Below, piece after piece: positions 39,684 to 64,000 of a stretch of 64,000 bases of DNA. The notes beneath the pieces are model-generated. The model had not been told where the DNA came from, searched no databases, and saw only the letters and a program-made list of their open reading frames with translations. Numbering within the stretch: the stretch's first letter is position 1; every line of letters starts with the position of its first letter. The translations under genes and the position numbers were made by a program. Source of the DNA: Candidatus Limnocylindrales bacterium (GTDB lineage: Bacteria; Chloroflexota; Limnocylindria; Limnocylindrales; CSP1-4); NCBI GenBank assembly GCA_038214375.1, contig JBBQRX010000007.1, forward strand, positions 15,717-79,716, in the 5' to 3' direction.

Positions 39684-40418
39684 TTACACCGGCAACTGCG
39701 GCTGTGGCGCGATCACCGCGGCTGGTCCCTTCCGGCGGTCGCGCAGCCCCGGCGACCGGGCGAGGCGTTCGAGCAGCCCCACCGCGACCTCGGTGGCGAT
39801 CGCGAGTCCCGCGACCAGAACGACCCCGCCGAAGACCTGGCCGTCATCGTTCTGCGCGATCCCGTCGACGAGGAAGCGTCCCAGGCCGCCGCTCCCGAAG
39901 ATCGCGCCAAGGGTGGCCGTCGCGACGATCTGGACGGCTGCGGACCGAACCCCGCCCAGCACGACGGGCAGGGCCACCGGCAGCTCGATCCGGGCGAGGA
40001 TCTGGCGCTCGCGCATGCCCATCCCGCGCCCGGCCTCGACGAGGTCGCGGTCCACCTCGGCGATGCCCGTGTAGGCGTTCACGAGGATCGGCGGGATTGC
40101 GAGCACGACCATGGCCACGAGCGTCGGCAGGACCGTCCCGCCGAGCACCGGGTCCACGAGCACCGTGACCGGGATGGCGATCGCGATGACCGCGAGTGAC
40201 GGCAGGGAGCGCCCGAGGTTCGCCACGCCCGCGGCCGCGGCGGCTCCCCGCCCGGTGTGGCCGATCGCGAGGCCCGCCGGCAGCGCGAGCAGCAGCGCGA
40301 TCCCGAGCGAGATGCTCGCGATCAGCACGTGCTCGAGCAGCCGGTTCGGGATCCCGCTCTGGCCGGCCCACTGGGCCGGATTCGTCAGCCACGCCGCGGT
40401 TTCCGTCACGAGGTTCAC
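39684..40418 (-). CDS. ABC transporter permease (OpuBB/ProW-like)
   Basis: BPD-transporter EAA-like loop (ARIELPVALPVVLGGVRSA); GTG start overlaps upstream stop (GTGA). Confidence 0.85.
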   Translation of the reverse strand: MNLVTETAAWLTNPAQWAGQSGIPNRLLEHVLIASISLGIALLLALPAGLAIGHTGRGAAAAAGVANLGRSLPSLAVIAIAIPVTVLVDPVLGGTVLPTLVAMVVLAIPPILVNAYTGIAEVDRDLVEAGRGMGMRERQILARIELPVALPVVLGGVRSAAVQIVATATLGAIFGSGGLGRFLVDGIAQNDDGQVFGGVVLVAGLAIATEVAVGLLERLARSPGLRDRRKGPAAVIAPQPQLPV

Positions 40419-47736: not shown

Positions 47737-47758
47737 CGCCGCCTATCATACGGACCCG

Positions 47759-49024: not shown

Positions 49025-49416
49025 GCAGGCCGGATCCCCGACCGGTCCCGCAGCGATCCTGGCTCGAGATCCGCTGGCGCCAGGCTCGAAATGCTCCCCC
49101 GCCCGTCTTTCGCGCCGTCCTCAGCAGCGTCGCAGTCGCAGCCGTGCTGGGCGGGCTCTATCTCGCGTACGACCTGGCGCTGGCCGGCGGAGCCCGCCTG
49201 CCGGGCGGAGACCTGCGGACCCTTGCAGGCGTCCTTTTCGTGGTCGCCGTAACGGCCCTGGGGGCGTGGATCACGTATCTGGTCGTTCCGCAGCCGGGGA
49301 GGCCGGGCGTTCGAAGCCGGTGGAGCGCGGCGCTCGGGTTCTTCGCCGCCCTGCCGATCGCCTACCTCGCCCTCGTCGTCCTGTTCCAGGTGATCAAGCC
49401 GCTGGTCCGCGGGTAG
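49021..49416 (+). CDS. hypothetical membrane protein
   Basis: GTG overlaps upstream stop (GTGA); three predicted TM helices. Confidence 0.5.
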   Translation: MSRPDPRPVPQRSWLEIRWRQARNAPPPVFRAVLSSVAVAAVLGGLYLAYDLALAGGARLPGGDLRTLAGVLFVVAVTALGAWITYLVVPQPGRPGVRSRWSAALGFFAALPIAYLALVVLFQVIKPLVRG

Positions 49417-49444
49417 CCCGCGGGCCGGTTCGGGACGACCCTAT

Positions 49445-49558
49445 CGGTGCGCGGTCGCACCGGCTTGTGCTGCCGACCCCGCAAATTGGTACTGGTACCT
49501 TCGGCGGTGCGTGCGGTACCCTCGTCCGGCATTCATCTCGCGGTGCGCGGCGGTATCG
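49445..49558. promoter_or_regulatory. cluster of palindromes / repeated GGTGCG(C/T)G motifs upstream of 49595 gene
   Basis: CGGTGCG-cggt-CGCACCG (49445-49462), GGTAC-tg-GTACC (49488-49499), CGGTGCGTGCGGTACC (49505-49520), CGGTGCGCGGCGGTATCG (49541-49558). Confidence 0.3.
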
Positions 49559-49594
49559 TCGGCCCCGCCCATCTGACACATTCAGGAATTTCAC

Positions 49595-49936
49595 GTGGCC
49601 GTCCAGCAAGATCCATACGTCGCGCTCCCATCCCTCTACGGCGCGCCGGCATACTCGCGTCCGCCGCGCCCGCCGGTCGAGATCGAGCGTCCGCTGAGCC
49701 CCGACGATCTCCCGCTCACCACCGAGCAGACCGACGAGGAGCGCCGGATCGCGGATGCGCTGCTCGCCTCGGGCAGGCTCCATGCGGTCGGTGCGGATGC
49801 CGGGTACCGGTTGCCGGGCGGCCGCGACCCGGGCTACCAGGTCGCCGGCGTCCACGCGAGCGGCCCCGTTTCCGGGCTCTTTCCGCGCCGCCTCAGCCTC
49901 CGCGTCCTCGCCGATCGGATCCGCACCCGCGGCTGA
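49595..49936 (+). CDS. hypothetical protein
   Basis: GTG start; Pro-rich, acidic; weak. Confidence 0.45.
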   Translation: MAVQQDPYVALPSLYGAPAYSRPPRPPVEIERPLSPDDLPLTTEQTDEERRIADALLASGRLHAVGADAGYRLPGGRDPGYQVAGVHASGPVSGLFPRRLSLRVLADRIRTRG

Positions 49937-50038
49937 CCCCGGGTCCGGCGGCGTCCCGCGGTCCCGGCATGACCCGCTGGCGCGCACTGCGCCCCGTTAT
50001 CTCGACATGCAGCCTCCTTCCCGTCATCATCCCCAGGG

Positions 50039-50440
50039 ATGAGCACGCCGACGATCCGGATCGGACAGGCCGCGGAGCTGCTCGGCGTGGGCGTGGAGAC
50101 GCTCCGGCGCTGGGAGCTCGAGGGCCGGCTCCTCACGACTCGCACCGAGGGGGGCCAGCGGCGGGTGCCGATCGCCGAGGTGACCCGGCTGCTGGCTGAG
50201 CGGCGCCGAACGACCCCCGACCGGCCGATCGTCGCCCAGTCGGCGCGCAATCGATTCGCGGGCATCGTGACCCGGATCGAGCGCGACGGCGTCGCCGCCG
50301 TGGTCGAGATCGTGGCCGGGCCGCACCGGCTCGTGAGCCTGATGACCGCCGAGGCGGTCGAGGAGCTCCGGCTCGCGGTCGGCGACGAGGCGATCGGCGT
50401 CGTGAAGGCCACGAACGTGATCGTCGAGGTGCCCCGCTGA
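50039..50440 (+). CDS. molybdenum-pterin-binding (TOBE) domain protein with N-terminal MerR/excisionase-type HTH (ModE-like regulator)
   Basis: IGQAAELLGVGVETLRRWELEGRL HTH; C-terminal TOBE (SARNRFAGIVTRIERDGVAAVVEIVAG); directly upstream of modAB. Confidence 0.8.
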   Translation: MSTPTIRIGQAAELLGVGVETLRRWELEGRLLTTRTEGGQRRVPIAEVTRLLAERRRTTPDRPIVAQSARNRFAGIVTRIERDGVAAVVEIVAGPHRLVSLMTAEAVEELRLAVGDEAIGVVKATNVIVEVPR

Positions 50441-50472
50441 GCCGGTTCGGGCCGGGCACCATCCGTCGCGGG

Positions 50473-51255
50473 GTGACAGGTGCGGGCGCCGTGTACGTGC
50501 TCGCCGCGCTCCTCGTTGCCGGCTGCGGGCATCCAACGGGCACGAAGACGCTCACCGTTCTCGCGGCAGCCTCGCTCCGCGACGCGTTCCGGGCCGCCGG
50601 GACGGCCTACACCGCGGCGCACCCGGACACGGCCGTGACATTCTCGTTCGACGCGTCCAGCGCGCTTCGTGCCCAGGTCGAGCAGGGAGCGCCCGCCGAC
50701 GTCTTTGCCAGCGCCGACACCACCAACCCCGAGCACCTGGTGCAGGCTGGCATGACGGTCGGCGCGGCCGTGCCGTTCGCGGGGAATCGTCTCGCGCTCA
50801 TCGTGCCGGCCGCGAACCCGGGCCGGATCACAACGCCCGCGGACCTGGCCCGCCCCGGCATCTCGCTGCTCACCGCGAGCCCGAGCGTGCCGATCGCTCG
50901 ATACACGCTGCAGGTCGTTGCGAACCTCGCCGGGGAGCCCGGAGCGCCGATCGGGTTCGCGGCCGCCGTCGAGCGGAACGTCGCCAGCCGCGAGGACAAC
51001 GCGGCCGCCGTGGTCGCGAAGGTCGGACTCGGCGAGGCAGATGCGGCGTTCGTGTACGCGACCGACGCCCGCGCCGCCGGGGCAGCGGTCCGCACGATCG
51101 CGTTCCCCGACCGCGACAACGTCACCGCGACATACGCCGCCGTGGTTGCCCGGCAGTCCCAGGATCCCGCCGCCGCGGCTGCATTCGTCGCGTGGCTGGC
51201 GGGGGCGGAAGGCCGGGCGATCCTGGGTCGTTTCGCGTTCGAGCCGCCGCCGTGA
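50473..51255 (+). CDS. modA: molybdate ABC transporter substrate-binding protein
   Basis: Lipoprotein signal (LLVAGCG); ModA-like (AASL..., SADTTNPEHL, VYATDA). Confidence 0.85.
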   Translation: MTGAGAVYVLAALLVAGCGHPTGTKTLTVLAAASLRDAFRAAGTAYTAAHPDTAVTFSFDASSALRAQVEQGAPADVFASADTTNPEHLVQAGMTVGAAVPFAGNRLALIVPAANPGRITTPADLARPGISLLTASPSVPIARYTLQVVANLAGEPGAPIGFAAAVERNVASREDNAAAVVAKVGLGEADAAFVYATDARAAGAAVRTIAFPDRDNVTATYAAVVARQSQDPAAAAAFVAWLAGAEGRAILGRFAFEPPP

Positions 51256-52088
51256 CGCTCTTTGAGGGGCTGCGGCAGCGCCGCGACCCGCTTCCGGGTG
51301 GCGCGCTCCCGAGCGTCGTGGCTGCCGGCTGGGTCCTGTTCCTCGGGCTCCCGATCGCCGCGCTGCTCCTCCGCGCAGCGGCCATCGGGCGCGTGGACGA
51401 CGCGTCGTCCGGCCGCGTGGTGCTCGATGCGCTCGTGCTGAGCCTGGTCACGACCGCCGCGAGCCTCGCGCTCGCCGTTGCCTTCGGGCTGCCCGTCGCG
51501 TGGCTGCTCGCGCGCCGGCCGCCCCGCGGCGCGGTGCTCCTCGAGACCCTGATCGACCTGCCGATCGTGCTGCCGCCTTCGGTCGCCGGCCTGGCGTTGC
51601 TGCTCGTGTTCGGGCGGCAGGGCGTCCTCGGCGGGCCGCTAGCGGCTGCCGGCCTGAGCGTGCCGTTCACCACCATGGCGGTGATCGTCGCCCAGACGTT
51701 CGTGGCAGCGCCGTTCTTCATCCGCTCCGCTCGCGCCGGCCTTCGCAGCGTTCACCGGGACCTGGAGGACGCCGCTCGGGTCGACGGCGCCGGGGAGATG
51801 GCCGTCGCGATGTCCGTGACGCTGCCGCTGGCGGCACCCGCGCTTGCGGCCGGGCTCGTGATGGCCTGGGCACGGGCGCTCGGAGAGTTCGGGGCGACGA
51901 TCATGTTCGCCGGCAACCTCGAGGGCCGGACCCAGACGTTGCCGCTCCTGGTCTACTCGGAGTTCCAGGCGAGCTCGGACGCGGCGGTCGTGGCGGCATC
52001 GATCCTGGTCGTGGCCGCCCTCGGCGTCCTCCTGGGCGTGCGTCTCGCACGGCGCGGCAGCGTCACGGATCTCGGCGCGGCGGGCTGA
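51252..52088 (+). CDS. modB: molybdate ABC transporter permease
   Basis: GTG overlaps modA stop; EAA-loop VDGAGEMAVAMSVTLPLAAPALAAGLVMAWARALGEFGATIMFAG. Confidence 0.9.
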   Translation: MTLFEGLRQRRDPLPGGALPSVVAAGWVLFLGLPIAALLLRAAAIGRVDDASSGRVVLDALVLSLVTTAASLALAVAFGLPVAWLLARRPPRGAVLLETLIDLPIVLPPSVAGLALLLVFGRQGVLGGPLAAAGLSVPFTTMAVIVAQTFVAAPFFIRSARAGLRSVHRDLEDAARVDGAGEMAVAMSVTLPLAAPALAAGLVMAWARALGEFGATIMFAGNLEGRTQTLPLLVYSEFQASSDAAVVAASILVVAALGVLLGVRLARRGSVTDLGAAG

Positions 52089-52143
52089 GGCGCGAATGCA
52101 TGGCCCATCCCGGCGAGGGCGGTGTACGCTCGTCCCGCCCGAT

Positions 52144-52219
52144 GGGGGAGTAGCTCAACGGTCAGAGCACCCGCCTTATACGCGGTTCGTTGGAGGTTCG
52201 AATCCTCCCTCCCCTACCA
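52144..52219 (+). tRNA. tRNA, anticodon UAU by manual fold (putative tRNA-Ile decoding AUA); CCA encoded
   Basis: Manual cloverleaf: acceptor GGGGGAG/CTCCCCT (G1-U72 wobble), D-arm GCTC-AACGGTCA-GAGC, anticodon arm CCCGC-CTTATAC-GCGGT (27-43 mismatch), V-loop TCGTT, T-arm GGAGG-TTCGAAT-CCTCC, discriminator A, CCA. Confidence 0.8.
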
Positions 52220-52297
52220 GCCGCCGCCGGTCTCGGCACCCGGTGGCCCGACGCGCGACTCCCGACGGGACGCGAAGACGCACGTCCCGAGCGGACG

Positions 52298-54664
52298 TCA
52301 GGAGAGCGAAGGGGCGGAGACCCGGCGCGGCCGTGGCCCCGGCGCCGCGCGGACGGTCGAAAAGCGACGCAGGCGGAGCGCATTCGAGACAACCGTCACG
52401 GATGACAGCGCCATCGATGCCGCCGCGAAGATCGGGTCGAGCAGGAGCCCGGTGAACGGGTACAGCACACCCATCGCGATCGGGATCAGCAGGACGTTGT
52501 AGGCGAACGCCCAGAACAGGTTCTGGCGGATGTTGCGCATCGTCGCCCGCGAGAGCGAGATCGCCGTGACGAGGCCGCGCAGGTCGCCCGACATGAGGGT
52601 GACGCCGGCCGACTCCATGGCGACGTCGGTTCCCGTGCCCATCGCGATCCCGACGTCGGCGGACGCCAGGGCCGGGGCGTCGTTGACGCCGTCGCCGACC
52701 ATTGCGACGACGGTACCCTCGGCCTGCAGCGCCTTCACGGCGGCGGCCTTGCCGTCGGGCCGGACGTCCGCGAGCACGCGGTCGATGCCAGCCGAGCGGG
52801 CAATCGCCTCGGCGGTCCTTCGGTTATCGCCGGTCAGCATCGTCACGACGATCCCGAGCCGCCGCAGCTCGGCCATCGCCTCGACGGACCCGGCCTTGAG
52901 CGTGTCGGCGATGGCGATGACGGCTGCTGCCCGCCCATCGATCGCGGCGAAGACCGGGGTCTTGCCGTCGGCCGCGAGCGCGTCCGCGCTCGCGACGAGC
53001 GCCGAGACGTCGATCCCTTCGGCCTCGAGGTATCCCGGGCGACCGACGACGACGCGGCGTCCGCCGACCATGGCCGCGACGCCGCCGCCCGCGGTGGCCA
53101 GGAAGCCGGTGGCCGCGGGCACGTCGAGGGCCCGGGTCGTGGTGGCCTCGCGCACGATGGCGTCGGCGAGGGGATGCTCGGACCCGCGCTCAGCGGCCGC
53201 CACGAAAGCAAGAAGCTCATTCTCGACCGGCGCGCCAGGTGCGCGGACCACATCGGTCACCCGCGGCTTCCCCTCGGTCAGCGTGCCCGTCTTGTCGAGG
53301 ACGATGGCCTTGACCGAGCCGAGGCGCTCGAGCGCCTCGGCGTTGCGGAACAGGATGCCGGCCTCGGCGCCCTTGCCCGTCCCGACCATGATCGAGGTCG
53401 GAGTGGCCAGGCCGAGCGCGCAGGGGCAGGCGATGATCAGGACCGCGACGGTGTTGAGCAGCGCGAGGTTGAACGCGGGCGCAGGGCCGAACGCGAACCA
53501 GGCAACGAACGTGAGCGCTGCAAGGCCGAGCACCGCGGGCACGAAGTAGCTCGTGACGAGATCCGCGAGACGCTGTATCGGTGCCCGGGAGCCCTGCGCC
53601 TCGGAGACGAGCCGGATGATCCGCGCGAGCACGGTGTCCGCGCCCACGCGCGTGGCGCGGAAGGTGAGGGTGCCCGTGGTGTTGAGGGTGGCGCCGACCA
53701 CGAGATCGTCGGCACGCTTGGCGACGGGCAGGCTCTCGCCCGTGATCATGCTCTCGTCCACGCCCGAGACGCCGTCGGTCACGACGCCGTCGACGGCGAT
53801 GGTCTCGCCCGGGCGAACCCGCACGATGTCGCCGACACGAACGTCGCTGATCGCGACGTCGAGCTCCGCGCCGTCCCTGAGGACGCGCGCCGTCCGGGGC
53901 GCGAGGCCGATCAGGCGCCGGATGGCGTCCGACGTGTGGCTGCGGGCGCGCGCTTCGAGGAACCGGCCGAGCAGGATCAGCGTGATGATCGCTGCCGCAG
54001 TGTCGAAGTAGAGCGGCAGGGCGGCGTCGTCCATGCCGAGCCCCGCAGCGCGGAAGAACGAAGGGACCAGGATCGTGGCCACGCTGTAGCCGTACGCGGC
54101 CGTCGTGCCCACGGCAATCAGCGTGTTCATGTCCGTCGCGCGGTGCCGGAGGGCCTTGATGGCGCCCGTGTAGAAGGGCCATCCCGCCCAGAACTGCACA
54201 GGCGTCGCGAAGGCGAGCTGGAAGAGCGGGTCCGACAGCAAGGCCGGCAGCCACGGCGCGACCGTCATCCGCGCGAGGCCGCCGAGCAGCGGAAGCGTCA
54301 GCACGGCCGCGATGAGGAGGCGGCGGCGCAGGGCGGCAACATGTCGGGCGGTTGCCTCGTCACGCTCCGTGCGCGCCTCTGCGGCCTCGGCGACGTCGAT
54401 CTCGTGGTCGGCCGATGCCGCCTGCTCCACCCGCGCGACGTAGCCCGCGGCATCGACCGCCGCGACGAGGTCCGCCACGGTCACCGACGCGGGGTCGTAC
54501 CGGATGGTGGCGGACTCAGACGCGAGGTTGACGTTCGCCTCGGCGACGCCCTCGACCTTGTTGAGGAAGCGCGTGATCCGGTTGACGCAGGAGGCACAGG
54601 TCATCCCCTCGACAGGGAACGAGACGACCTCGATGTGGGTGGCGGCGACGGTGGTCATGGTCAT
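52298..54664 (-). CDS. copA: copper-translocating P-type ATPase (P1B-1, CPC motif) with N-terminal HMA domain
   Basis: GMTCASC HMA, TGES, CPC ([13 protein letters not shown]), [17 protein letters not shown]. Confidence 0.9.
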
Positions 54665-54733
54665 CTCCGGGTGCTCGGCCCAAGGGCCGCGAGTCTGGAC
54701 GTGGGAACGACGACAGCGCGATCGGGCATGCGC

Positions 54734-56362
54734 TCAGCCGCCGGTTCCGGTCCTGCCGGTCGGTGCTGCGGGTCGGTCGACGACCGTGATGGAGCCGCCG
54801 TACATCCCCATCGCACACGAGTAGTTGATCACCCCGGCGTTCAACGGGGGCAGGTCGATGGTGTTGGCACCCTTGTGGAGTCGCCGCACCGTCATGCCGA
54901 GACCCGGCACCACCAGGCTCGCCGCGCACGAGGCGGTGCTGCTCGACTGGATCGTCCAGCGCGTTGGGACTCCGGCATAGATGGACACGTTCCCGGGCCT
55001 GTAGCCGCCCACGTCCTGGTACGTCGTCAGCGTCTGGATGCCGTCGGCGATGCTCCCGGACGGAGGGGCCGCCGCGGCGACCGGCGAGACACCGATCGGG
55101 AGGCTGAAGCCCGAGAGACGAAGGCCGGCCGACCCATTCACGATCGCGAAGCCGACCACCACGACGCCCACGAGGCGCATCAGCGTCGGCCGCCATGCGC
55201 TCGGGACCACCACCGGGAGCCCGGCGAGAGCCAGGAGGCCAGGGGCAGTGCCAAGCGCGAAGACGGCAAGGGTGGCGCCGGCGAGCCATGGCGAGCCGGT
55301 CGAGAGGGCGTAGATCTGGACGGCCTGGGTGAAGCCGCAAGGCAGGAAGAACGACGCCGCGCCGAGCCCGGCCGCGCGCGCATCCGAGTAGCTCCCGACC
55401 GCGCCATCCGTGAGGCCGAGGCGGCGTCCGAGTCCCATCGGCAGGGTCGGCGACCAGGTGGCGATCCGGGGCGACAGCCCGGTCAGCCGGGTCCCGAGGA
55501 CCGTCATCACGAGCGCCACGCCGATCATCAGCACGGCCGTGACCTGCGGCGGCATCGTGACGCTGGCCCCGAGGGCACCGAGCGCTGCCCCCAGCACGCC
55601 ATAGCCCGCGATCCGGCCGGCGATGAAGACGAGCGCGGGGCGCATCCTCGCGGCGATCGGCACGTCGCCGGCGCCGGACGCAACCCTGCCGCTCTCGAAC
55701 GCGGCGGACAGGGCGAGCACGAGCCCGCCCACGAGCGCGGCGCACGTGGAGACTCCCGCAGCAAGGCCCAGCAGCAGGGCGATGAGGATCCCTCCCTGGC
55801 TCACGTCGCCGACGCCCGAGGCAAGGTCCGCGAGGCCGGTCACCGACGCGAGCACCGCGAGCCCGCCAACGAGGACGATGCCTGCGATCGCGGTCATCCA
55901 GACGTCGGGGTCGGGCGTGATCCACGGCGTGCGTCCGATCTCGTAGCCGGCGGCACGGACGGCTTTCGTGACTGCCGCCGACGGGATCGGTGCCGAGCTC
56001 GTGATCTCAACACGTCCGTGGACCGCCGAGGCTCGCACCTGCTCGACGTTGGGGATCCTGCCGACGTGGCGCGCGATTCGGTTCTCGCACGACCGGCAGG
56101 TCATCCCCGCCACGTGGACGATGGTGGTCGTGATGACGCCGCCCGATGTCGGCCCCGTGATCGGCGTGTCCCCGTTGGCTGCGCTCCGATCCCGGGCCCG
56201 CTCTGCCAGCAGGCTGTCGACCTCGAGGCTGAAGAGCAGGTCGCGCTCCCTGGCACCGCTCGCGATCGGCTCGGGGGCAGGGGCGGAATGCGCAGGTGCC
56301 GGCGCCGGATGCGCAGGCCGTCGCTGGGCGTTCGCTGTGGTCCTGGGGTGGCTGCGGGACAT
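54734..56362 (-). CDS. three-domain membrane protein: cytoplasmic HMA domain, TauE/SafE-like polytopic permease region, C-terminal cupredoxin-like Cys/Met domain
   Basis: GMTCRSC HMA; about 8 TM helices (GVSTCAAL); C-terminal soluble domain with SCAASLVVPGLG and YSCAMGMYGG; ATG 56362 chosen (alternative GTG 56419). Confidence 0.7.
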   Translation of the reverse strand: MSRSHPRTTANAQRRPAHPAPAPAHSAPAPEPIASGARERDLLFSLEVDSLLAERARDRSAANGDTPITGPTSGGVITTTIVHVAGMTCRSCENRIARHVGRIPNVEQVRASAVHGRVEITSSAPIPSAAVTKAVRAAGYEIGRTPWITPDPDVWMTAIAGIVLVGGLAVLASVTGLADLASGVGDVSQGGILIALLLGLAAGVSTCAALVGGLVLALSAAFESGRVASGAGDVPIAARMRPALVFIAGRIAGYGVLGAALGALGASVTMPPQVTAVLMIGVALVMTVLGTRLTGLSPRIATWSPTLPMGLGRRLGLTDGAVGSYSDARAAGLGAASFFLPCGFTQAVQIYALSTGSPWLAGATLAVFALGTAPGLLALAGLPVVVPSAWRPTLMRLVGVVVVGFAIVNGSAGLRLSGFSLPIGVSPVAAAAPPSGSIADGIQTLTTYQDVGGYRPGNVSIYAGVPTRWTIQSSSTASCAASLVVPGLGMTVRRLHKGANTIDLPPLNAGVINYSCAMGMYGGSITVVDRPAAPTGRTGTGG

Positions 56363-56513
56363 CGGGACGCATGCTCCTTCGGAAAGCCGACTGACCGGAT
56401 CAGCGTGGAGGAGATGCACCGGCAGGCCAATGCAGCAGGGCGCAAGCCTTCCTCAAGTTCCGGTCAAGCGGCGCACCGGTGCCACCCGGGCCGGCGATCG
56501 TTGGGACCGCGGT

Positions 56514-58646
56514 TCACGACCGCTGGAACGGATCGCGGACGAGCGAGGGTTCTGCGCGCAGCACGAGCCGCCGGAGGAGCTGGGCGTTGGCGGCCACGAT
56601 GATCGTGGAGAGGCTCATCGCGATCGCGCCGACGGCCATCGGCAGGTCGATGCCCCAGGGCACGAGGACGCCAGCCGCAACCGGGATCGCCACCAGGTTG
56701 TAGGCCGTCGCCCAGACCAGGTTCTGGATCATCTTCGTGTAGGTCGCGCGGGACAGCTCGATGGCGCCGACCACGTCGCGCGGGTCGCTGCGGACCAGCA
56801 CGATCCCGGCCGATTCGACGGCCACGTCGGTCCCGGCGCCGATCGCGATCCCCACGTCGGCGGTCGCGAGGGCTGGGGCATCGTTCACGCCGTCACCGAC
56901 CATGGCGACTTTCCGCCCTCCCTCCTGGAAGCGGCGGACGGCGTCGGCCTTGTCCTGCGGCAGGACCTGCGCGGCAACCTCGTCGATCCCGAGCTGGCGG
57001 GCGACGGAGTCCGCGACCGCCTGGGCGTCGCCCGTGATCATCGCGACCTTGATGCCCATCGCATGGAGGCGCTCGATCGCCTCGGCCGACTCCGGCCGGA
57101 TCTCGTCCTCGATCGCGAGCGCACCGATGACCGCGCCGTCGGCCACCACGTGGAGCACCGTCCGGCCTTCGTGCGCCCATGCGTCGCTTGCCGGGTCCGC
57201 CTGGAGGCCGAGGTCGGCGAGCAGGCGCGGCCCGCCGACGGCGACCGATCGCCCCTCGACGGTCGCCCGCGCCCCGCGGCCGGCGAGGGCTTCGAAGGCG
57301 GTCGCGGCGGGGACCTCGACGGTGCGCTGCGCCGCTGCCCCGACGATGGCCCGGGCGAGGGGATGCTCGGAATCCGCCTCGACCGACGCCGCGAGGCGCA
57401 ACACGTCTGCTTCGTCCGTCCCGACCGCCGCGGAGACTGCCGTGAGCGCGGGACGCCCCATCGTGAGCGTCCCGGTCTTGTCGAAGATGACCACGTCGAG
57501 CTCGCGCGCCCGCTCGAGCGCGGTCCGGCTTTTCACGAGGAGGCCGTTCCGCGCGCCGAGCGAGGTCGAGATGGCGATCACGAGCGGGATCGCGAGGCCG
57601 AGGGCGTGTGGGCAGGCGATGACGAGGACCGTCGCCGTACGGACAAGCGCGCCCTCGGGGTCGCCGCGGAGCCACCAGAACGCGAGCGTCAGCCCGCCCG
57701 CAGCGAGGGCAACGTAGAAGAGAATCGCGGCGGCGCGATCGGCGAGCGCCTGCGCCCGCGAGGCGGATGCCTGCGCGGCGGCGACCATCCGCATGATCCC
57801 GGAGAGCGCGGTCGCTTCACCGACGGCCGAAACGCGCACCCGGAGGCTGCCGCCGGCCGCCACGGTGCCCGCGACCACGCGGTCGCCGAGCTCCTTGCCG
57901 ACGGCCTGCGATTCACCGGTGATCATCGATTCGTTGACGTCAGCAGTCCCTTCATCGACGATCCCGTCGGCGGGAATCCGGGCCCCCGGCCGGACGAGGA
58001 CCACGTCGCCGACCGCGAGATCGCCGAGGGCGACGGTCTCGGTGCCCTGCGGCGTGACACGCTCGGCGGTATCGGGCAGGAGCTCGGCGAGCGCCGCCAG
58101 GGCGCCGCGCGCCTGGGCGATCGAGCGCATCTCCAGCCAGTGGCCGAGCAGCATGATCGTGATGAGCGTGGCCAGCTCCCACCAGATCTCGACCTCGAAC
58201 AGTCCCAGCGTCCCGGACCAGCTGGTGCCGAACGCGACCACGATCGCGAGCGAGATGAGGGTCATCATCCCGGGCTGCCGGGCCCGGAGCTCGCCGGCGG
58301 CCCCGCGCAGGAAGACGAAGCCGCCGTAGAGGAAGACCACGGTCCCGAGCACGGCCGGGATCCAGTCGGAGCCGGGGAAGCGCGGCGCCGCGTACCCGAG
58401 CCACGCCTGCGGGTCGCGGCTCCAGACCAGGACCGGGATCGTCAGCGCGAGGCTCAGCCAGAACTTGTCGCGGAACATGGCGACCGAGTGACCGGCGTGC
58501 TTGTCGTGGGCCGCGGAATCCCCGCCGTGACCGCTCCCGTGGGCAGCGGTCTGCATCCCCTCCATCTCCACGTGGTCATGCGGGTCGCGACCTGTGCCCG
58601 CGGGCAGCCCGTGTTCGGGCGGCATCTCGTGGTCAGCGTGCATCGG
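56514..58646 (-). CDS. heavy-metal P-type ATPase, CopB-like (P1B-3, CPH motif) with His-rich N-terminal metal-binding tail
   Basis: N-terminus HADHEMPPEHG...HDHVEMEGM...HGSGHGGDSAAHDKHAGH; TGES, CPH (VIACPHALGLAIP), [13 protein letters not shown]. Confidence 0.9.
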   Translation of the reverse strand, partial: PMHADHEMPPEHGLPAGTGRDPHDHVEMEGMQTAAHGSGHGGDSAAHDKHAGHSVAMFRDKFWLSLALTIPVLVWSRDPQAWLGYAAPRFPGSDWIPAVLGTVVFLYGGFVFLRGAAGELRARQPGMMTLISLAIVVAFGTSWSGTLGLFEVEIWWELATLITIMLLGHWLEMRSIAQARGALAALAELLPDTAERVTPQGTETVALGDLAVGDVVLVRPGARIPADGIVDEGTADVNESMITGESQAVGKELGDRVVAGTVAAGGSLRVRVSAVGEATALSGIMRMVAAAQASASRAQALADRAAAILFYVALAAGGLTLAFWWLRGDPEGALVRTATVLVIACPHALGLAIPLVIAISTSLGARNGLLVKSRTALERARELDVVIFDKTGTLTMGRPALTAVSAAVGTDEADVLRLAASVEADSEHPLARAIVGAAAQRTVEVPAATAFEALAGRGARATVEGRSVAVGGPRLLADLGLQADPASDAWAHEGRTVLHVVADGAVIGALAIEDEIRPESAEAIERLHAMGIKVAMITGDAQAVADSVARQLGIDEVAAQVLPQDKADAVRRFQEGGRKVAMVGDGVNDAPALATADVGIAIGAGTDVAVESAGIVLVRSDPRDVVGAIELSRATYTKMIQNLVWATAYNLVAIPVAAGVLVPWGIDLPMAVGAIAMSLSTIIVAANAQLLRRLVLRAEPSLVRDPFQRS

Positions 58647-58736
58647 GTAGGTGACCCCCGCTGGGTGGGCGGATGACGACGGGCAGCTCACGATAGAACG
58701 TGGAACCCTGGCCCGCTCTCGGGACTCGTGCGTTCC

Positions 58737-59294
58737 CTACTGGACCACGATCGTCCCGCTCATGCCGGCTTCATAGTGACCGGGAGCGTGGCACGCGTAC
58801 GCGAAGGGACCCGTTCCCGTGAACGTGTACGTCAGGGACCTGATCTGCATCATGCCGAGATCCGCGATCTCCGGGGTCCCGGCCTTGTCGGCGGCCACAT
58901 CGGCCGCCGGTCCGACCATGAACTCGTGGACCACGGGGCCAATCGTGGTGATCTCGAAGGTGATCGTCTCGCCGGCCCCGACCGTCACGGCAGGGGGCAG
59001 GAAGCGAAGCTGCGGGGTGGCAACGATCCTCACGACTCGCGGCGTTGCCGGTGTTCCGGCCACGAAGCCGGGTTCGCCGGGCCCGGGCGCGGACGCCGTG
59101 CCATTCCACGCGCCGCCCATCATGCCGGGGGCGTTGCCGAACGCGCCCATCATCCCCGTCCCGAACCCAGCCGGCTGGGAAGAAACCCCGGTCCCGGCCG
59201 TGACGACCGAGCCGATGCCAAGAAGCGCGATCCCCGCCACTGCGAGGGCCGTGCCGAGCAGTCCGAGCCCTCGCCCGTTCACCGCGTGATTCAT
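58737..59294 (-). CDS. secreted cupredoxin (plastocyanin/azurin-like type-1 copper protein) with Gly/Met-rich linker
   Basis: Signal peptide; linker GFGTGMMGAFGNAPGMMGG; type-1 Cu ligand pattern H(EF)...YACHAPGHYEAGM. Confidence 0.8.
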   Translation of the reverse strand: MNHAVNGRGLGLLGTALAVAGIALLGIGSVVTAGTGVSSQPAGFGTGMMGAFGNAPGMMGGAWNGTASAPGPGEPGFVAGTPATPRVVRIVATPQLRFLPPAVTVGAGETITFEITTIGPVVHEFMVGPAADVAADKAGTPEIADLGMMQIRSLTYTFTGTGPFAYACHAPGHYEAGMSGTIVVQ

Positions 59295-59545
59295 CGCCCG
59301 GCCTTGAGCACGTTTGCTGCCTGCGTGTACTCGGCCTCTGTGATCTCACCGCGGGCGAAACGCGCGCGGAGGATGTCGAGAGGGTCCGTGCCGGCCGGCG
59401 ACGCCGCGATCCCGTGGTTGGCCGCTTTTGCACGCGACACCGCCCAGACCACGAGGACGACGAGGCCCACCATCAGGAGGATGCCGCCAAGCATCCAGAG
59501 CATTCCACCGAGCCCGAAGCCGAGGCCCGTGCCATATCCCATCAT
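59291..59545 (-). CDS. SHOCT domain-containing membrane protein
   Basis: N-terminal TM helix, C-terminal ...LDILRARFARGEITEAEYTQAANVL SHOCT-like motif; stop overlaps next gene. Confidence 0.7.
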   Translation of the reverse strand: MMGYGTGLGFGLGGMLWMLGGILLMVGLVVLVVWAVSRAKAANHGIAASPAGTDPLDILRARFARGEITEAEYTQAANVLKAGR

Positions 59546-59744
59546 CGTGGTTCACCGTTCTTGCGCCCCGGATCTTCCGGGGACCTGTCTCCATGATCGC
59601 GGGCGCGTCTCTGGTCAGCTGCTGGCGCGGATCAAGAAACCGTCAAGAGATCCAGGGTCCGGTCGGTCGCCCAGCTCACCTCTCGGACGTCATCCTGCGC
59701 GCATTCGCCTCCGGGTGCCGTCGAGGGAAGGCGCGCGAGGCTCA

Positions 59745-60022
59745 TCACCGCCCGAGCAATCGGGCGAGAAGGCCTCGCGGCATCTCCGTCGCCGGTTCCG
59801 ACTGGGCGGTGTCCGCGCGATAGCCGGCGGTTTCGACCGCCTGCGCCAGTGCCGCGTTCGACACCAGCGCGGGATCCCGGCGCACGGTCATGCACGCATC
59901 GCGCAGGCTCACCGCACGGACTCCACCCCGACGACCTTCTTCACGGACCTGGTGATCCGGTTCACGCAGGAGCTGCAGGTCATCCCCGACACGGGGACGC
60001 AGATCGTTTCGATCTCGCTCAC
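59745..60022 (-). pseudogene. copZ-like heavy-metal-associated (HMA) copper chaperone gene interrupted by a frameshift near 59909-59912
   Basis: Frame A: [37 protein letters not shown]-stop; frame B continues VSLRDACMTVRRDPALVSNAALAQAVETAGYRAD... Joined they give a complete HMA fold; a single missing base in the gtgcggtgagcc run would account for the frame change; GTG start overlaps ccdA-like stop (GTGA). Confidence 0.55.
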
Positions 60023-60876
60023 ATCGAGACCATCAGGCCGAAGCTCATGGCGATCACCGCCAGCGCGAGGCCGGCCTTGATCCAGGGCGAGTTCGCCCGG
60101 TTCCAGCGCGCGAGCTTGCCGAGCACGCGCCGGTTGCTGACCGACAGGAGGAGGAGCAGCAGCGGGACGATGAAGGCGATGTTGTAGAGGGCGAGAAGCG
60201 CGACGCCCGTGAGCCCGCCACCCGACGCCTGGAGGACCGTCACGATGGCGAGGTAGATCGCGCCCGAGCACGGCACGGTGCAGATCCCGACGAGCACCCC
60301 CGCGATCAGCATGCCGGCGAGGCCGCCGCGCTGCATCGCCTTGTGCATCCGGCCATGCGTTCCCGAGGGGGCCATCATCGAGGGCCCGACGCCGGGCAGG
60401 AACACATCCTTCAGCATCCACAGGGCCATGACGAGGGCCAGGATCGAGGCGCCCCGGGCGACAAGGTGGTCGCGGCCGAGCCAGCCAAGGACCGTGAAGA
60501 GGCCGAGGCCGATGATGAAGTACGTGACGAGCACCGCGCCCACGTACAGCGAGCCCGCGCCCAGGAGCCGCTGGCGCGCCTCGAGCGTCGGCGTTCCGCT
60601 GGACGTGACGGCGTTGACAAGCGTGAGCGTGTAGGTCGCGAACAGGACCAGCAGCGCGAACGCGCACGGATTGAAGCCGTCCGCGAACCCCGAGACCAGG
60701 ACGGTCGGGACGGTCAGGCCGCCGAACGCCGCCGTGTCGAAGGGGACCGCGAGCACGTATGCGAGGGCAGCGACACCGACCGTCACGATCAGGGTCGCGA
60801 GCGCGATGGCGGGCCGCGGCCAGCCCAGGAGGAGAGGCGACGCGGGAATGGGTCCCGGACTCGCCTCCTGTGTCAT
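60019..60876 (-). CDS. cytochrome c biogenesis CcdA-like / DsbD transmembrane-domain protein
   Basis: 6 TM; conserved Cys pair in TM helices (FNPCAFALL and CTVPCSGAIYL). Confidence 0.8.
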   Translation of the reverse strand: MTQEASPGPIPASPLLLGWPRPAIALATLIVTVGVAALAYVLAVPFDTAAFGGLTVPTVLVSGFADGFNPCAFALLVLFATYTLTLVNAVTSSGTPTLEARQRLLGAGSLYVGAVLVTYFIIGLGLFTVLGWLGRDHLVARGASILALVMALWMLKDVFLPGVGPSMMAPSGTHGRMHKAMQRGGLAGMLIAGVLVGICTVPCSGAIYLAIVTVLQASGGGLTGVALLALYNIAFIVPLLLLLLSVSNRRVLGKLARWNRANSPWIKAGLALAVIAMSFGLMVSM

Positions 60877-61337
60877 GCCGACGGCTCCACGACGATCTTG
60901 CCGTGCATCGTCGGGCTGCCCTTCCCGCCGCAGCAGGAGTCACACCAGACGTCGTAGGTGCCGGGCTTGTTCGGGACGTTCCAGGCCACGGCCCTCCGGC
61001 TCTCGGCCGATAGCTCCTCGCGAAGCCCAAGGTCAGGGGCGATCATCGTGTGGACGCCGCCCTGGAGGTGCATCGCAGCGTCCTCGGTCCACCAGTCGAG
61101 GGTGACCGTCGTGCCGGCCGTGACCCGGATCTCGGAGGGTGTGAAGCCGGCCATCGAGCTCTGGACGCTGATCGTCCCGGCGGTGGCCGCGGGCCGGGTG
61201 AGGAAGTCGCCGAACGCGAGGTAGACCCCGGCGCCGAGCACCGCAACGACGACTCCAATGAAAAGGAGCGGCCGGAGTCGTTGGCTGGTCGTGGGCTGCG
61301 GCGCCTGAGCGGCGCGGCGAACGGTGTGGGTCGTCAC
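60873..61337 (-). CDS. membrane-anchored cupredoxin-like protein
   Basis: One TM anchor then beta-rich domain with H...CDSCCGGKGSPTMHG ligand-like cluster; GTG start; stop overlaps ccdA-like ATG (ATGA). Confidence 0.6.
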   Translation of the reverse strand: MTTHTVRRAAQAPQPTTSQRLRPLLFIGVVVAVLGAGVYLAFGDFLTRPAATAGTISVQSSMAGFTPSEIRVTAGTTVTLDWWTEDAAMHLQGGVHTMIAPDLGLREELSAESRRAVAWNVPNKPGTYDVWCDSCCGGKGSPTMHGKIVVEPSA

Positions 61338-61618
61338 GACCCTGCCGTCCCGGACATCATGCTGCTCATCCCCTCGACCATCATCCCGTTCGGGCCGAAC
61401 ATCCCGGCAAGAGAGCCGTGCATCGCGACGCAGTCGGTCACGTGTGCGCCGACGTTCGGGCCCATCGCCCGCATGCTGGCCAGGTGCGCCAGCCATGCCT
61501 GCACGTCGACCGGCGGTGTCGCCGAACCCGGGTCAGCGGCAACGACCGCGCGCGGCAGGGCGAGAGCGCTCGCGAGGGCGGCGGTCGCCACGAGGCGCAT
61601 GAGGGTGCGGATCGTCAT
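61334..61618 (-). CDS. small secreted Met-rich protein (candidate Cu(I)-binding, MxxM/MM motifs)
   Basis: GGAGGA RBS 7 nt before ATG; signal peptide (LVATAALASALALP); C-terminus MHGSLAGMFGPNGMMVEGMSSMMSG. Confidence 0.55.
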   Translation of the reverse strand: MTIRTLMRLVATAALASALALPRAVVAADPGSATPPVDVQAWLAHLASMRAMGPNVGAHVTDCVAMHGSLAGMFGPNGMMVEGMSSMMSGTAGS

Positions 61619-61638
61619 CAGGGTTCCTCCGTGTGTCG

Positions 61639-61846
61639 TCAGGACTCGAGCAGGCGCCGGGCCCGCTCGAATTCGTCCGGGGTGATCTCTCCGCGCGCCA
61701 GGCGTGCCCGCAGCGTCGTCGCCGCGTCGTCGAGCTGGGAGCGGTGGGGCTCGCGCACGAGGAGCCAGACCAGCCCGATGACCACCAGGGCCCATGCGCC
61801 GAGCCACACCCAGCCCTCGAGGCCCATCGTCCAGCCGTTCATCATC
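61639..61846 (-). CDS. SHOCT domain-containing membrane protein (second copy)
   Basis: GAGGAG RBS; TM helix then ...LRARLARGEITPDEFERARRLL. Confidence 0.6.
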
Positions 61847-61997
61847 CGTTTCTCCTCGCGCTGCCGGCGGCCAGGCCGGGCACGCGACAAGCATCACGGA
61901 CCACCCTCAGGCCGCCATGCAGGAACGAGCAAGACCCCCTCAAGATTGGGTCAAGCACGGGACCGGGAGCCGGTCCCATCCCCTGTCGAGTGGCCGG

Positions 61998-62441
61998 TCA
62001 GCCCGTGGGAGGCGCGACCTCGTGCTTCGCCCACGCGAAGAGCGCGTCGTAGACCGGCAGCTCGAGCTCGAGCTGGCGCTGATCGTCGATCCCGAGGAGC
62101 GCGAAGCCGTCGGCGATGGCCAGCAGGCCGCGCGACTGCGGCGTGGCGTCGGGGTCCTCGGCCACGTCGGCCCCGTGAACGACTCGGGCCAGGAGCGCCA
62201 GCGCCGGATCGGCGCCGAGCCCGAAGTCCTCGACGAGGACCTCGAACGAGCACAGGCCGTCACGATGGGTGTAGCGGGCACCCCTGGCGTCGAAGCTTGT
62301 TGCGCCCTCCCGCTCGGCGAACGCGAGCACCTGGTCGGCCGGCACGAATACGATCTCCGCATCGGGGTCGATGAACGTGCGGATCAGCCATGGGCATGCG
62401 ATCCGGTCCGTCCGGGGGTGTTCCCGGGTTACCCACTTCAT
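61998..62441 (-). CDS. chromate-resistance-domain (ChrB C-terminal-like, PF09828-type) protein
   Basis: MKWVTREHPRTDRIACPWLIRTFIDPDAEIVFVP matches the conserved N-terminus of this family (from memory). Confidence 0.65.
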   Translation of the reverse strand: MKWVTREHPRTDRIACPWLIRTFIDPDAEIVFVPADQVLAFAEREGATSFDARGARYTHRDGLCSFEVLVEDFGLGADPALALLARVVHGADVAEDPDATPQSRGLLAIADGFALLGIDDQRQLELELPVYDALFAWAKHEVAPPTG

Positions 62442-62488
62442 CGCTCTGCTCCTCCTTCGCCTGGATGCTCCGGCGCGCCCGGCCGTCG

Positions 62489-63577
62489 TCAGGTCGCCGG
62501 GAGCTCAAGCAGGAACGTGGCGCCCTTGCCGGGGCCTGCGCTCTCGGCCCACGCGCGTCCCCCCATCGCCTCGGCAAGCGCCCGCACGATCGCGAGGCCG
62601 ATGCCGGATCCACCGCCGGCGCGACTGCGCGCCGGGTCGACACGGTAGAAACGTTCGAAGACCGCCTCCAGCTGGTCGGCCGGGAGCCCGGGACCCCGAT
62701 CGGTCACCTCGATGCAGACGGCCGCCTCGCCTGACGTCGCGTCGACCGTGATCTCCGACCCGGCGGGCGCGTGCCGGATCCCATTGGAGAGATAGTTCCC
62801 CAGGACCTGGGCAACGCGGTCGCGATCGGCGCGCGCCGCCGCCGAGCCAGGGCTGACCGTGATCGTGATCCCGCGGGCCGCGGCCATCGGGCCGAACCGA
62901 TCCACGACCTCGCGAGCCACGTCCAGGAGATCGACGGCGTCGAGACGGAGGGGAAGCTGGTGCGCCTCGGCGCGCCAGAGGTCGGACAGGTCGTTGACGA
63001 GCCGGGTGAGGCGCCCGGTCTCGGAGCGGAGGAGCTGCCACGTCGCAGCGGACGGCTCGATGACGCCGTCCTCGAGGCCTTCGAGGTAGCCGTCGAGGGT
63101 GGTCAGTGGCGTCCGCAGCTCGTGCGCCACGTCGCCGACGAGCTGGAGGCGCCTCCGCTCGGTCGCTTCGAGAGAGCCGGCCATCTCGTTGAACGACAGC
63201 GCCAGGTCGCCGAGCTCGCCCGGCTCATCGGCGGGCACACGCTCCGCGTAATGACCCCGGGAGATCCGGCGCGCAGCGCCGACAAGCGTGGTCATCGGTC
63301 GGGCGATCCTGGCCGCGACGGCGAGGCTCACGACCGTCGCCGTGACCACCGCGATGATCGTCGCCGCGGCGAGCGCCTGGCGCATGGCCTCGGTGAACGC
63401 CGCCTGCGTCGCCTGGGCCATCGCGGTGCCCAGCTGGTCGCCCGGCGCGTGGCCCATCGCCTCGGCGAAGTAGCCCGGCCCGACCAGCAGGACCGCGACC
63501 GCGATGGTTCCAATCGCAGCCGCGACCACGATGAGGAATGCCACGAGCATCCGGGCCCGGAGGGATCGGGCCAGCAT
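62489..63577 (-). CDS. sensor histidine kinase (HAMP, HisKA, HATPase_c)
   Basis: Two TM, HAMP, H-box VAHELRTPLTTL, N/G boxes (LSNGIRHAP..., DRGPGLP, GGSGIGLAIV). Confidence 0.9.
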   Translation of the reverse strand: MLARSLRARMLVAFLIVVAAAIGTIAVAVLLVGPGYFAEAMGHAPGDQLGTAMAQATQAAFTEAMRQALAAATIIAVVTATVVSLAVAARIARPMTTLVGAARRISRGHYAERVPADEPGELGDLALSFNEMAGSLEATERRRLQLVGDVAHELRTPLTTLDGYLEGLEDGVIEPSAATWQLLRSETGRLTRLVNDLSDLWRAEAHQLPLRLDAVDLLDVAREVVDRFGPMAAARGITITVSPGSAAARADRDRVAQVLGNYLSNGIRHAPAGSEITVDATSGEAAVCIEVTDRGPGLPADQLEAVFERFYRVDPARSRAGGGSGIGLAIVRALAEAMGGRAWAESAGPGKGATFLLELPAT

Positions 63578-64000
63578 CAGCCCGGTTCTCGCAGGCGGTA
63601 TCCGACGCCCCGAAGCGTCTCGATGAACCGCGGCTCCGCAGCGTCGTCGCCGAGCTTGCGCCGGAGGTTCGCGACGTGGACGTCCACGAGGTGATCATCC
63701 GCGACGAACTCGGGGCCCCACACGCGATCGAGGAGCGCCTGGCGGCGGATGACGACCCCCGGATCGCGGGCGAGGACGGCGAGGAGGTCGAACTCGAGGG
63801 CGGTGAGCTCGACGGCGATGCCGTCGACGCGGACGGCTCGGCGCCCTTCGTCGATGTCCAGGCCGGCAGGCATGGCCGGGACGGCGGACGGTCCACCACG
63901 TGGCCGGCGCAGGAGCGCCTTGACGCGGGCGACAAGCTCCCGGGGCGAGAATGGCTTCACGAGGTAGTCGTCCGCGCCGACGGTCAGGCCCACGATCCGG
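63577..64000 (-). CDS. OmpR-family response regulator (3' part; 5' end beyond window)
   Basis: Receiver C-terminus plus winged-helix (GADDYLVKPFSPRELVARVKALLRR ... RGVGYRL); stop overlaps kinase ATG (ATGA). Confidence 0.85.
   Translation of the reverse strand, partial: RIVGLTVGADDYLVKPFSPRELVARVKALLRRPRGGPSAVPAMPAGLDIDEGRRAVRVDGIAVELTALEFDLLAVLARDPGVVIRRQALLDRVWGPEFVADDHLVDVHVANLRRKLGDDAAEPRFIETLRGVGYRLREPG

Follow-up and report, generated by a model that had tools for sequence, protein, structure and literature searches.

What is known of extracytoplasmic copper handling in bacteria comes mostly from Proteobacteria and a small number of Firmicutes. The described systems closest to the locus reported here are the copZA and copYZAB operons and CopB ATPases, the CusRS and CopRS two-component systems, the cupredoxin CopI of Rubrivivax gelatinosus, Pseudomonas and Vibrio, the CupA protein of Streptococcus pneumoniae, the PcoE/SilE-type proteins, and the CcdA/DsbD–TlpA/ResA/ScsB thiol pathways. 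CopI and CupA are the precedents for copper cupredoxins (PMC13308877, PMC7558416; PMC7558416 for CupA). Here, we analyzed a 64,000-nucleotide stretch of Candidatus Limnocylindrales bacterium (GenBank assembly GCA_038214375.1, contig JBBQRX010000007.1, positions 15,717 to 79,716 of the forward strand), hereafter the window, in which a block of copper genes occupies the right-hand end. From 52.3 kb to the window end, every convincing open reading frame (ORF) is located on the minus strand. ORF and domain scans bore out this layout and the gene content listed in a preliminary description of the same DNA, namely a CPC-type CopA with an HMA domain, a CcdA-like protein, a CopZ-like gene, a Met-rich secreted peptide, and, at the far end, a ChrB-domain protein and a two-component system. 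That inventory missed a 561-residue fusion protein, the second DsbD-superfamily protein of the block. We consider it likely that the block is an export-and-capture regulon for copper stress, probably copper and silver stress, made of three minus-strand operons with a common operator.

The operons are defined by three operator boxes. The regions upstream of SHOCT genes, in the relatives and in the window, are enriched for CTTGAC...TCTTGA, a direct repeat with an 11-bp period, sometimes followed by a third repeat (-N6-CTTGC). An 11-bp period is typical of OmpR/PhoB-type binding sites. Conservation counts were drawn from 71 Chloroflexota loci; L-numbers below denote related sequences. The pattern CTTG[AC]-N6-CTTG[AC] is found upstream of SHOCT genes in 46 of 71 regions, compared with a background rate of 0.0055 per 172 nt. 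The window pattern CTTGA-N6-CTTGM has five overlapping matches at three sites in the 64 kb, where 0.04 would be expected. The three sites, all on the minus strand and located by motif scan, lie in the gaps before the SHOCT2 gene (box 1, CTTGACCCAATCTTGAGGGGGTCTTGC, three repeats, 61929–61955), the SHOCT1 gene (box 2, CTTGACGGTTTCTTGA, 59632–59647) and the fusion gene (box 3, CTTGACCGGAACTTGAGGAAGGCTTGC, three direct repeats with the 11-bp period, 56442–56468). A search of both strands of 2.6 Mb of related loci returned 67 boxes, 54 of which precede SHOCT, fusion or Cup2 genes; at 45 of the 67, the box is followed first by a SHOCT gene. Homologues of the fusion gene are preceded by a box in eight relatives; these eight boxes and box 3 were outside the motif-discovery set and serve as an independent check. 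To our knowledge, the CTTGA-N6-CTTGA box is unlike the published CusR and CopR boxes. A consensus scan for sigma-70 promoters and terminators gave nothing above chance.

Judged by the box positions, the block consists of three putative operons: operon 1, with SHOCT2, the Met-rich protein, Cup2, the CcdA-like protein and a frameshifted CopZ; operon 2, with SHOCT1, Cup1 and CopB; and operon 3, with the fusion protein and CopA. Start and stop codons overlap by 4 nt at SHOCT1/Cup1, Met-rich/Cup2, Cup2/CcdA and CcdA/copZ. Other boxes in the relatives precede genes for membrane-anchored TlpA/ResA-like thioredoxins with a WCxxC motif, a DUF836 glutaredoxin-like gene, CopB and a response-regulator gene (L044, ~6847–7540, minus strand; L056, 12236–12892, minus; L045, ~4212–4490, plus; L020, ~8530, minus; L068, ~12440, minus). 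Since boxes stand before thioredoxin- and glutaredoxin-like genes, the regulon extends to thiol-redox proteins for which the window has no genes.

The two P1B ATPases carry complete signatures. CopA, a predicted P1B-1 Cu(I) exporter (52298–54664, minus strand, second gene of operon 3), has Pfam HMA (65.6 bits), E1-E2 and Hydrolase (HAD) domains and scores 612.8 with TIGR01511 (cut-off 397). Its translation contains GMTCASC in the N-terminal HMA domain, CPCALG, AYNV, MALSS and DKTGT, and thus every feature of P1B-1 Cu(I) ATPases that we tested. The CopB-like ATPase (56514–58691, minus strand, third gene of operon 2), assigned by Pfam and by TIGR01511 at 570.3 (cut-off 397), has many histidines in its N-terminal 60 residues, no Pfam HMA match, and the motifs CPHALG, AYNL and MSLST. 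This is the P1B-3 combination of a His-rich N-terminus without HMA, CPH, YN and MSxST. The preliminary description had correctly named it a CPH-type CopB-like ATPase but had seen the His-rich segment as a tail; the segment is N-terminal. The assignment of the block to copper homeostasis or resistance is thus strongly supported by two full-signature P1B ATPases, four HMA or cupredoxin ligand sets, and an operator common to three operons.

The third component familiar from copZA and copYZAB operons is copZ itself (59745–60022, minus strand, last gene of operon 1), which encodes an HMA domain with GMTCSSC. A 1-nt deletion at ~59910–59912 (59905–59915) breaks the HMA domain downstream of its CxxC motif. 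At this point the window reads GTG CGG TGA GCC, while the relatives are intact with R-V/I-x-L across it, and the repaired translation matches HMA at 48 bits. The identical break is present in an independent Logan contig (L001, 165–275). In this genome, copZ is probably a pseudogene; the break could be a true pseudogenization or a shared read-level artefact. The locus resembles copZA and copYZAB operons and their CopB ATPases in its CopA, its His-rich CopB motifs and its HMA chaperone gene. It differs in that copZ is frameshifted, a two-component system and a direct-repeat box replace CopY, CsoR or CueR, and each pump gene shares its operon with genes for extracytoplasmic copper proteins tethered to the membrane.

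The fusion protein is encoded by the first gene of operon 3 (54734–56419, minus strand, with a likely start at ATG 56362 backed by a ribosome-binding site). It combines an HMA domain (39 bits, with CxxC), a DsbD_2 core (82.7 bits, Pfam cut-off 24.9) and a C-terminal CupA-like domain. The C-terminal domain matches the Protein Data Bank (PDB) entries for CupA (4f2e, 2mry) and for the metal-binding domain of pneumococcal CopA (4f2f) with the ligand columns in register. The binuclear ligands of CupA are present, 'tasCaas' in the fusion corresponding to 'psCldq' in CupA and 'sCaMgM' to 'aCgMnM'. The core cysteines are located in VSTCAA, in transmembrane segment 1, and FLPCGF, in transmembrane segment 4. 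From hydropathy and the positive-inside distribution of Arg and Lys, the protein is predicted to have seven transmembrane segments, a cytoplasmic HMA domain and an outward-facing CupA-like domain. S. pneumoniae CupA and the metal-binding domain of pneumococcal CopA both have its bridging Cys and CxMxM motif, and the fusion gene is likewise directly upstream of copA. However, pneumococcal CupA is a single-pass protein that gives Cu(I) to the cytoplasmic cupredoxin-type domain of CopA, whereas the domain here is C-terminal to an HMA domain and a seven-segment DsbD_2 core, with a predicted outward orientation, and CopA here bears a ferredoxin-like HMA domain instead of a cupredoxin-type one. The CupA architecture of a single N-terminal anchor with a cupredoxin-type domain in the partner CopA is therefore not that of the fusion.

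Operon 1 encodes three further proteins with candidate roles outside the cytoplasm or in the membrane. Cup2 is a membrane-anchored CuA-like cupredoxin (60873–61337, minus strand; PF13473, 36.6 bits), and its GTG start overlaps the stop of the Met-rich gene. An alignment of relatives shows that M65, D89, H99, C135-x2-C138-C139 and M147 are invariant. The best PDB profile matches of Cup2 are the CuA domains of nitrous oxide reductase and CoxB (E ~4e-4). This likeness is at the level of fold and profile only, as the CuA site H...C-x3-C-x3-H-x2-M is replaced in Cup2 by H99...C135-x2-C138-C139-x7-M147 and the second His is absent. The adjoining CcdA-like DsbD-superfamily membrane protein (60019–60876, minus strand, 285 residues) was assigned from hydropathy and from a DsbD_TM match of 24.9 bits, which falls slightly short of the 27.1 cut-off. 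It has about seven transmembrane segments with cysteines in FNPCAF and CTVPC; as in the fusion protein, each half of the membrane core thus holds a conserved Cys. The Met-rich secreted protein (61334–61618, minus strand, 94 residues) was supported as a gene by its ORF, a GC content at third codon positions (GC3) of 0.88 and a GGAGG ribosome-binding site. It has a signal peptide, and its mature part contains many Met, several His and one Cys. Its single homologue, at the same position in L026, is 61% identical, and no Pfam or NCBIfam family is similar to it. It is therefore comparable to PcoE/SilE-type proteins by composition alone, being small and Met/His-rich with a signal peptide, but differs from them in lacking similarity to any of these families.

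Cup1 is a membrane-anchored type-1 (blue-copper) cupredoxin that is distantly CopI-like (58737–59294, minus strand; PF00127). An alignment of homologues shows that H123, C168, H173 and M178, the His-Cys-His-Met set of CopI, are invariant. The AlphaFold2 model built with 20 homologues has an N-terminal transmembrane helix, a disordered GMMGG-rich linker with a predicted local distance difference test score (pLDDT) below 50, and a β-sandwich, with pLDDT above 90 for residues 70–185. The top structural matches are azurins and the auracyanins of Chloroflexota, and the alignment also matches auracyanin B by sequence. CopI is the best named NCBIfam family, with scores well below the equivalog cut-offs (NF051440, 55.7 against 280; NF047895, 22 against 200). 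Proteobacterial CopI-like proteins are ~30–37% identical to Cup1 across the cupredoxin domain; these relatives bear HAALMKKFPDMEHDE...-type loops where Cup1 has PAADVAADKAGTPEIADLGMMQ, with no His. Cup1 thus resembles CopI in its His-Cys-His-Met center and its copper-ATPase neighborhood. It differs in having a transmembrane anchor and GMMGG repeats in place of the His/Met loop and the His-rich site, and in being paired with a SHOCT gene, as the proteobacterial loci have no SHOCT. In CopI, oxidation of Cu(I) by the type-1 center has been proposed (PMC13308877).

The two SHOCT proteins are the first genes of operons 2 and 1. SHOCT1 (59291–59545, minus strand) is a single-pass membrane protein and overlaps Cup1 by 4 nt; SHOCT2 extends over 61639–61845 (minus strand; ORF to 61890, with a ribosome-binding site supporting the start at 61845). 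Both belong to PF09851 (33.8 and 31.9 bits, cut-off 27) and have the conserved motif ILRxRFARGEIxxxEF in a C-terminal two-helix hairpin. In SHOCT1, the N-terminus is predicted to be outside and the hairpin cytoplasmic. The N-terminus is rich in Met, Gly and Trp, and the alignment contains no conserved Cys or His. The SHOCT proteins are therefore the exception among the small proteins of the block, the others of which have conserved candidate metal sites. The preliminary description had each SHOCT protein followed by a cupredoxin. Both SHOCT proteins and both cupredoxins are present, but SHOCT2 is separated from Cup2 by the Met-rich gene. Its view that the arrangement goes beyond textbook loci was fair, as the order SHOCT then cupredoxin is conserved in the lineage: a cupredoxin follows the SHOCT gene in 60 of 64 cases. 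From the side of Cup1, a SHOCT gene is directly upstream of at least 42 of 67 genes, and most of the others follow copZ in a longer SHOCT-led operon. Two-domain Cup1 relatives of 288 residues were considered as a guide to the pairing; they stand alone, without SHOCT or copper genes, and are hence uninformative. We know of no function for the SHOCT domain since its description in 2013. In the literature that we searched, SHOCT proteins were nowhere linked to copper handling, and the only related entry was a SHOCT membrane protein of Haloferax that is induced by silver (PMC10694973). A search for literature on copper in Limnocylindria and on YcnL was likewise unproductive. A tblastn search of PLSDB plasmids with SHOCT1 and SHOCT2 gave no match.

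A two-component system is located at the far end of the block, consisting of a HAMP-HisKA-HATPase histidine kinase (62489–63577, minus strand; Pfam, NCBIfam) and an OmpR/PhoB-family response regulator with a Trans_reg_C domain (63577–64000, minus strand), which runs past the window end. A full-length orthologue of the regulator in L002 is 91% identical. The regulator most likely controls the three operons and is a candidate binder of the CTTGA boxes. In the kinase, two transmembrane segments flank an outer loop of ~34 residues, in which a loop alignment reveals a conserved Met/His-rich sequence, AMGHxPGDxMG..M. This loop may be the sensor of Cu(I) or Ag(I). The periplasmic domain of CusS and CopS is ~130–150 residues in size. 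The system resembles CusRS and CopRS in that an OmpR-family regulator and a HAMP-HisKA kinase are found beside copper efflux genes together with a direct-repeat operator; it differs in the 34-residue Met/His loop as the candidate sensor and in scores under the subfamily cut-offs. Between the kinase and SHOCT2 lies the gene for the ChrB_C-domain protein (61998–62441, minus strand; PF09828, 146.9 bits). In L002, the closest relative among the metagenome-assembled genomes, the genes for the kinase and SHOCT1 are separated by those for a NiCoT-type nickel/cobalt permease and a Fur-family regulator (2453–4138), where the window has chrB and operon 1.

Several observations weigh against a copper stress regulon of this form. 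The kinase lacks the large periplasmic sensor domain of CusS and CopS, and the heavy-metal subfamily models TIGR01386/TIGR01387 score it at 212 (cut-off 292.55) and the regulator orthologue at 188 (cut-off 279.2); the two fall short of the heavy-metal cut-offs and form a pair of the generic OmpR/PhoB type. Cup1 has neither the N-terminal His-rich site of CopI nor its internal His/Met-rich loop, the latter reported to be essential for resistance (PMC13308877). The chaperone gene is broken in this genome, the CcdA-like protein has no thioredoxin-fold partner within the 64-kb window, and the membrane topologies were derived from crude hydropathy analysis. Finally, SHOCT–Cup1 pairs with the 4-nt overlap are also found without a box, beside Pyr_redox_2 (SQR-like), DsrE, rhodanese and TusA genes (L082, 4831–6745; L085, 6001–8003; L086, 1581–4147; range L082–L089). 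Because these settings are of the sulfide-oxidation type, the SHOCT–Cup1 pair is not exclusively a copper-stress unit, which suggests a second, sulfur-linked context for it.

These boxless pairs also bear on the function of the SHOCT proteins. It is possible, though on balance unlikely, that they serve the histidine kinases as accessory sensors or modulators, a role that small membrane proteins play for other kinases with minimal sensor loops. The SHOCT type tracks the kinase clade, as SHOCT2-type proteins occur with clade A in 12 of 13 cases and SHOCT1-type proteins with clade B in 20 of 23. This correlation is tighter than that with cupredoxin type, since SHOCT2-type proteins precede Cup1 in 8 of 22 cases. 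The small outer loop of the kinase, the position of SHOCT directly after the box in most instances, and the presence of one SHOCT per operon rather than per cupredoxin are consistent with such a role. However, the correlation of types could reflect the shared descent of whole gene blocks, a cupredoxin follows SHOCT almost without exception, and the overlapping SHOCT–Cup1 pairs persist where neither a box nor a two-component system is nearby. Since the pairs persist without a box beside sulfur genes, SHOCT appears to be chiefly a cupredoxin partner.

Comparison with related loci shows that the block is dispensable at its position. To its left, on the plus strand, are modE, modA and modB, followed by a tRNA-Ile gene with anticodon TAT (52144–52219, plus strand; ARAGORN, Rfam), which borders the variable block on its left, and housekeeping genes lie farther left. 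Two related metagenome contigs, L090 and L091, whose ModB is 90% identical at the protein level, align to the window over 47384–52094 at 80–82% nucleotide identity. Their gene order is modEAB, tRNA-Ile(TAT), a CNNM/CorC-type gene, the C-terminal half of chrB, and TldD/PmbA genes, and this locus contains no copper genes and no two-component system. Homology is lost at the tRNA and picks up again at the stop codon of chrB, and the intervening 9.7 kb is exactly the three box-preceded operons, a presence/absence polymorphism. In L090 (4383–5186, minus strand) and L091 (~7357–7587), only the C-terminal half of chrB remains (Pfam positions 53–131), and thus the relatives have been rearranged too, by a deletion or a rearrangement breakpoint inside the gene. 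The tRNA-Ile(TAT) gene follows modB in L090 (2710–2785), L091 (5669–5744) and also L114 (9442–9519). The tRNA has a genuine TAT anticodon (an AUA decoder) and an encoded CCA, in a genome with a GC3 of ~90%. Such tRNA-Ile genes are uncommon in bacteria, and AUA codons should be very rare at such a GC3. To the left of the block, 37000–40000 and 48000–52000 show a marked negative AT skew (to -0.24 and -0.21 in 2-kb windows) with unchanged GC.

The preliminary description had called the block an island. The absence of the block at the modEAB–tRNA-Ile–chrB locus of the closest relatives found supports one side of this claim, and a classical island, integrated horizontally at the tRNA-Ile gene by an integrase-bearing mobile element, would also fit the start of the block 78 bp past the tRNA gene, the conserved flanks of L090 and L091, and the many different orders and several copies per metagenome-assembled genome (MAG) in which related modules occur within the lineage. 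However, the composition is native. The window has a GC content of ~72% throughout, and the block has a GC content of 0.70–0.72, a GC3 of 0.82–0.92 (0.81–0.93 elsewhere in the window) and a tetranucleotide correlation of 0.993 with the whole window (0.990–0.997 for other 12-kb slices), so that the comparison of GC and codon usage revealed no foreign signature. No integrase or transposase was seen in the examined 38–64 kb of the window, and repeats of the tRNA end in the window were limited to chance matches of at most 13 nt; the right end of the block is beyond the window, where an integrase is possible. All close homologues come from Chloroflexota MAGs of Limnocylindria/Limnocylindrales, for which reason an actinobacterial origin, suggested by the 72% GC content, was also rejected. 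The truncated chrB points to a deletion or rearrangement in the relatives as well. A classical island is therefore an unlikely reading, and the block appears instead to be a variable cassette-like region that is exchanged or reshuffled within the lineage. Among the loci compared, those from the long-read-derived MFD MAGs (L010, L053, L063, L068 and L071) contain many genes that are strings of frameshifted tblastn fragments. These are most likely assembly indel errors, and therefore gene-integrity calls from those MAGs are unreliable.

The operon-1 genes raise a different possibility. CcdA comes after Cup2 in 18 of 18 loci, with an HMA gene next in 15 of 18. With this conserved order and the fusion protein, the trio of cupredoxin, DsbD-type and HMA proteins occurs in split and in fused form, which by Rosetta-stone reasoning suggests a common function. 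By analogy with the MerP–MerT–NmerA relay for Hg(II), the DsbD-type proteins might be central to a thiol-based relay that moves Cu(I) across the membrane without ATP, in which Cu(I) would pass from a cytoplasmic HMA domain, that of CopZ or of the fusion, to the core Cys pair and on to an extracytoplasmic cupredoxin, either Cup2 or the CupA-like domain, with SHOCT proteins as dedicated partners of the anchored cupredoxins. We regard this relay as improbable. The better-known role of such proteins is in the CcdA/DsbD–TlpA/ResA/ScsB pathways, which the locus resembles in having two DsbD-superfamily proteins with cysteines in transmembrane segments 1 and 4 beside Cys-bearing cupredoxins, and in having TlpA-like thioredoxins under the same operator in relatives. 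It differs in that the conserved partners here are a CuA-like cupredoxin and an HMA protein, split or fused. Our literature search found no paper describing CcdA, a cupredoxin and CopZ together in a copper context.

The main rival reading, also an unlikely one, is that the block serves the maturation of cuproproteins and electron transfer, with the cupredoxins as auracyanin-like carriers, the ATPases metallating proteins like CopA2/CcoI, and CcdA with a TlpA-like partner reducing CuA-like cysteines. The structural and sequence matches of Cup1 to azurins and auracyanins, and those of Cup2 to CuA domains, would fit this role. Box-preceded TlpA-like genes adjoin the Cup2–CcdA operons in L044 and L056, being divergent from them, and TlpA is known to reduce the CuA cysteines of CoxB before metallation (PMC6669012). 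The SHOCT–Cup1 pairs beside Pyr_redox_2, DsrE and rhodanese genes in L082–L089 also fit. However, no oxidase, reductase or cytochrome gene is found in or adjoining the block, and the set of two exporters, one a His-rich CopB, a Met-rich secreted protein and several HMA domains is of the detoxification type. In addition, a dedicated kinase whose outer loop is rich in Met is in keeping with a stress response. Maturation is thus less likely because there is no linked redox enzyme, two exporters are present, the best named relative of Cup1 is the resistance protein CopI, and the block is dispensable in close relatives. The preliminary description had spoken of duplicated SHOCT–cupredoxin modules. 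A recent tandem duplication is ruled out by the 34% identity of SHOCT1 and SHOCT2 and the absence of BLAST similarity between Cup1 and Cup2, members of different families (CopI/azurin-like and CuA-like Cys-rich), so that the apparent repeat is two different operon types.

In the export-and-capture regulon that we favor, excess Cu(I) would be sensed by the Met/His loop of the kinase, and the regulator would then activate the three operons, making them copper-inducible. The HMA domains would bind cytoplasmic Cu(I), and CopA and CopB would pump it outward. Outside the cytoplasm, Cup2, the CupA-like domain, the Met-rich protein and the GMMGG linker of Cup1 may capture Cu(I), and the type-1 center of Cup1 may oxidize it, as proposed for CopI. 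The two DsbD-type proteins may carry reducing equivalents outward and so keep the cysteine ligands reduced, for which TlpA offers a precedent. The SHOCT proteins, obligate first genes of the cupredoxin operons, would most likely be membrane partners or scaffolds of the single-pass cupredoxins.

Every protein of the block except the Met-rich one belongs to a known family, and the logic of sensor, exporters, chaperone and extracytoplasmic binders is textbook. In the literature searched, the operator, the obligate order of SHOCT then cupredoxin, the fusion of a predicted outward-facing CupA-like domain to DsbD_2 and HMA, and the conserved Cup2–CcdA–HMA operon are undescribed. The cluster shows how a copper system is assembled in an abundant, uncultured lineage of soil and freshwater Chloroflexota, and it provides a candidate regulon whose operator is clear and amenable to testing. 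Since the parts are all small and expressible, the hypotheses are directly testable. The SHOCT domain is placed in a reproducible genetic setting beside cupredoxins; if the Cu(I) relay were true, this would be the first functional context for the domain. The HMA, DsbD-type and cupredoxin modules, occurring both split and fused, point to an uncharacterized trans-membrane redox or metal relay in these bacteria.

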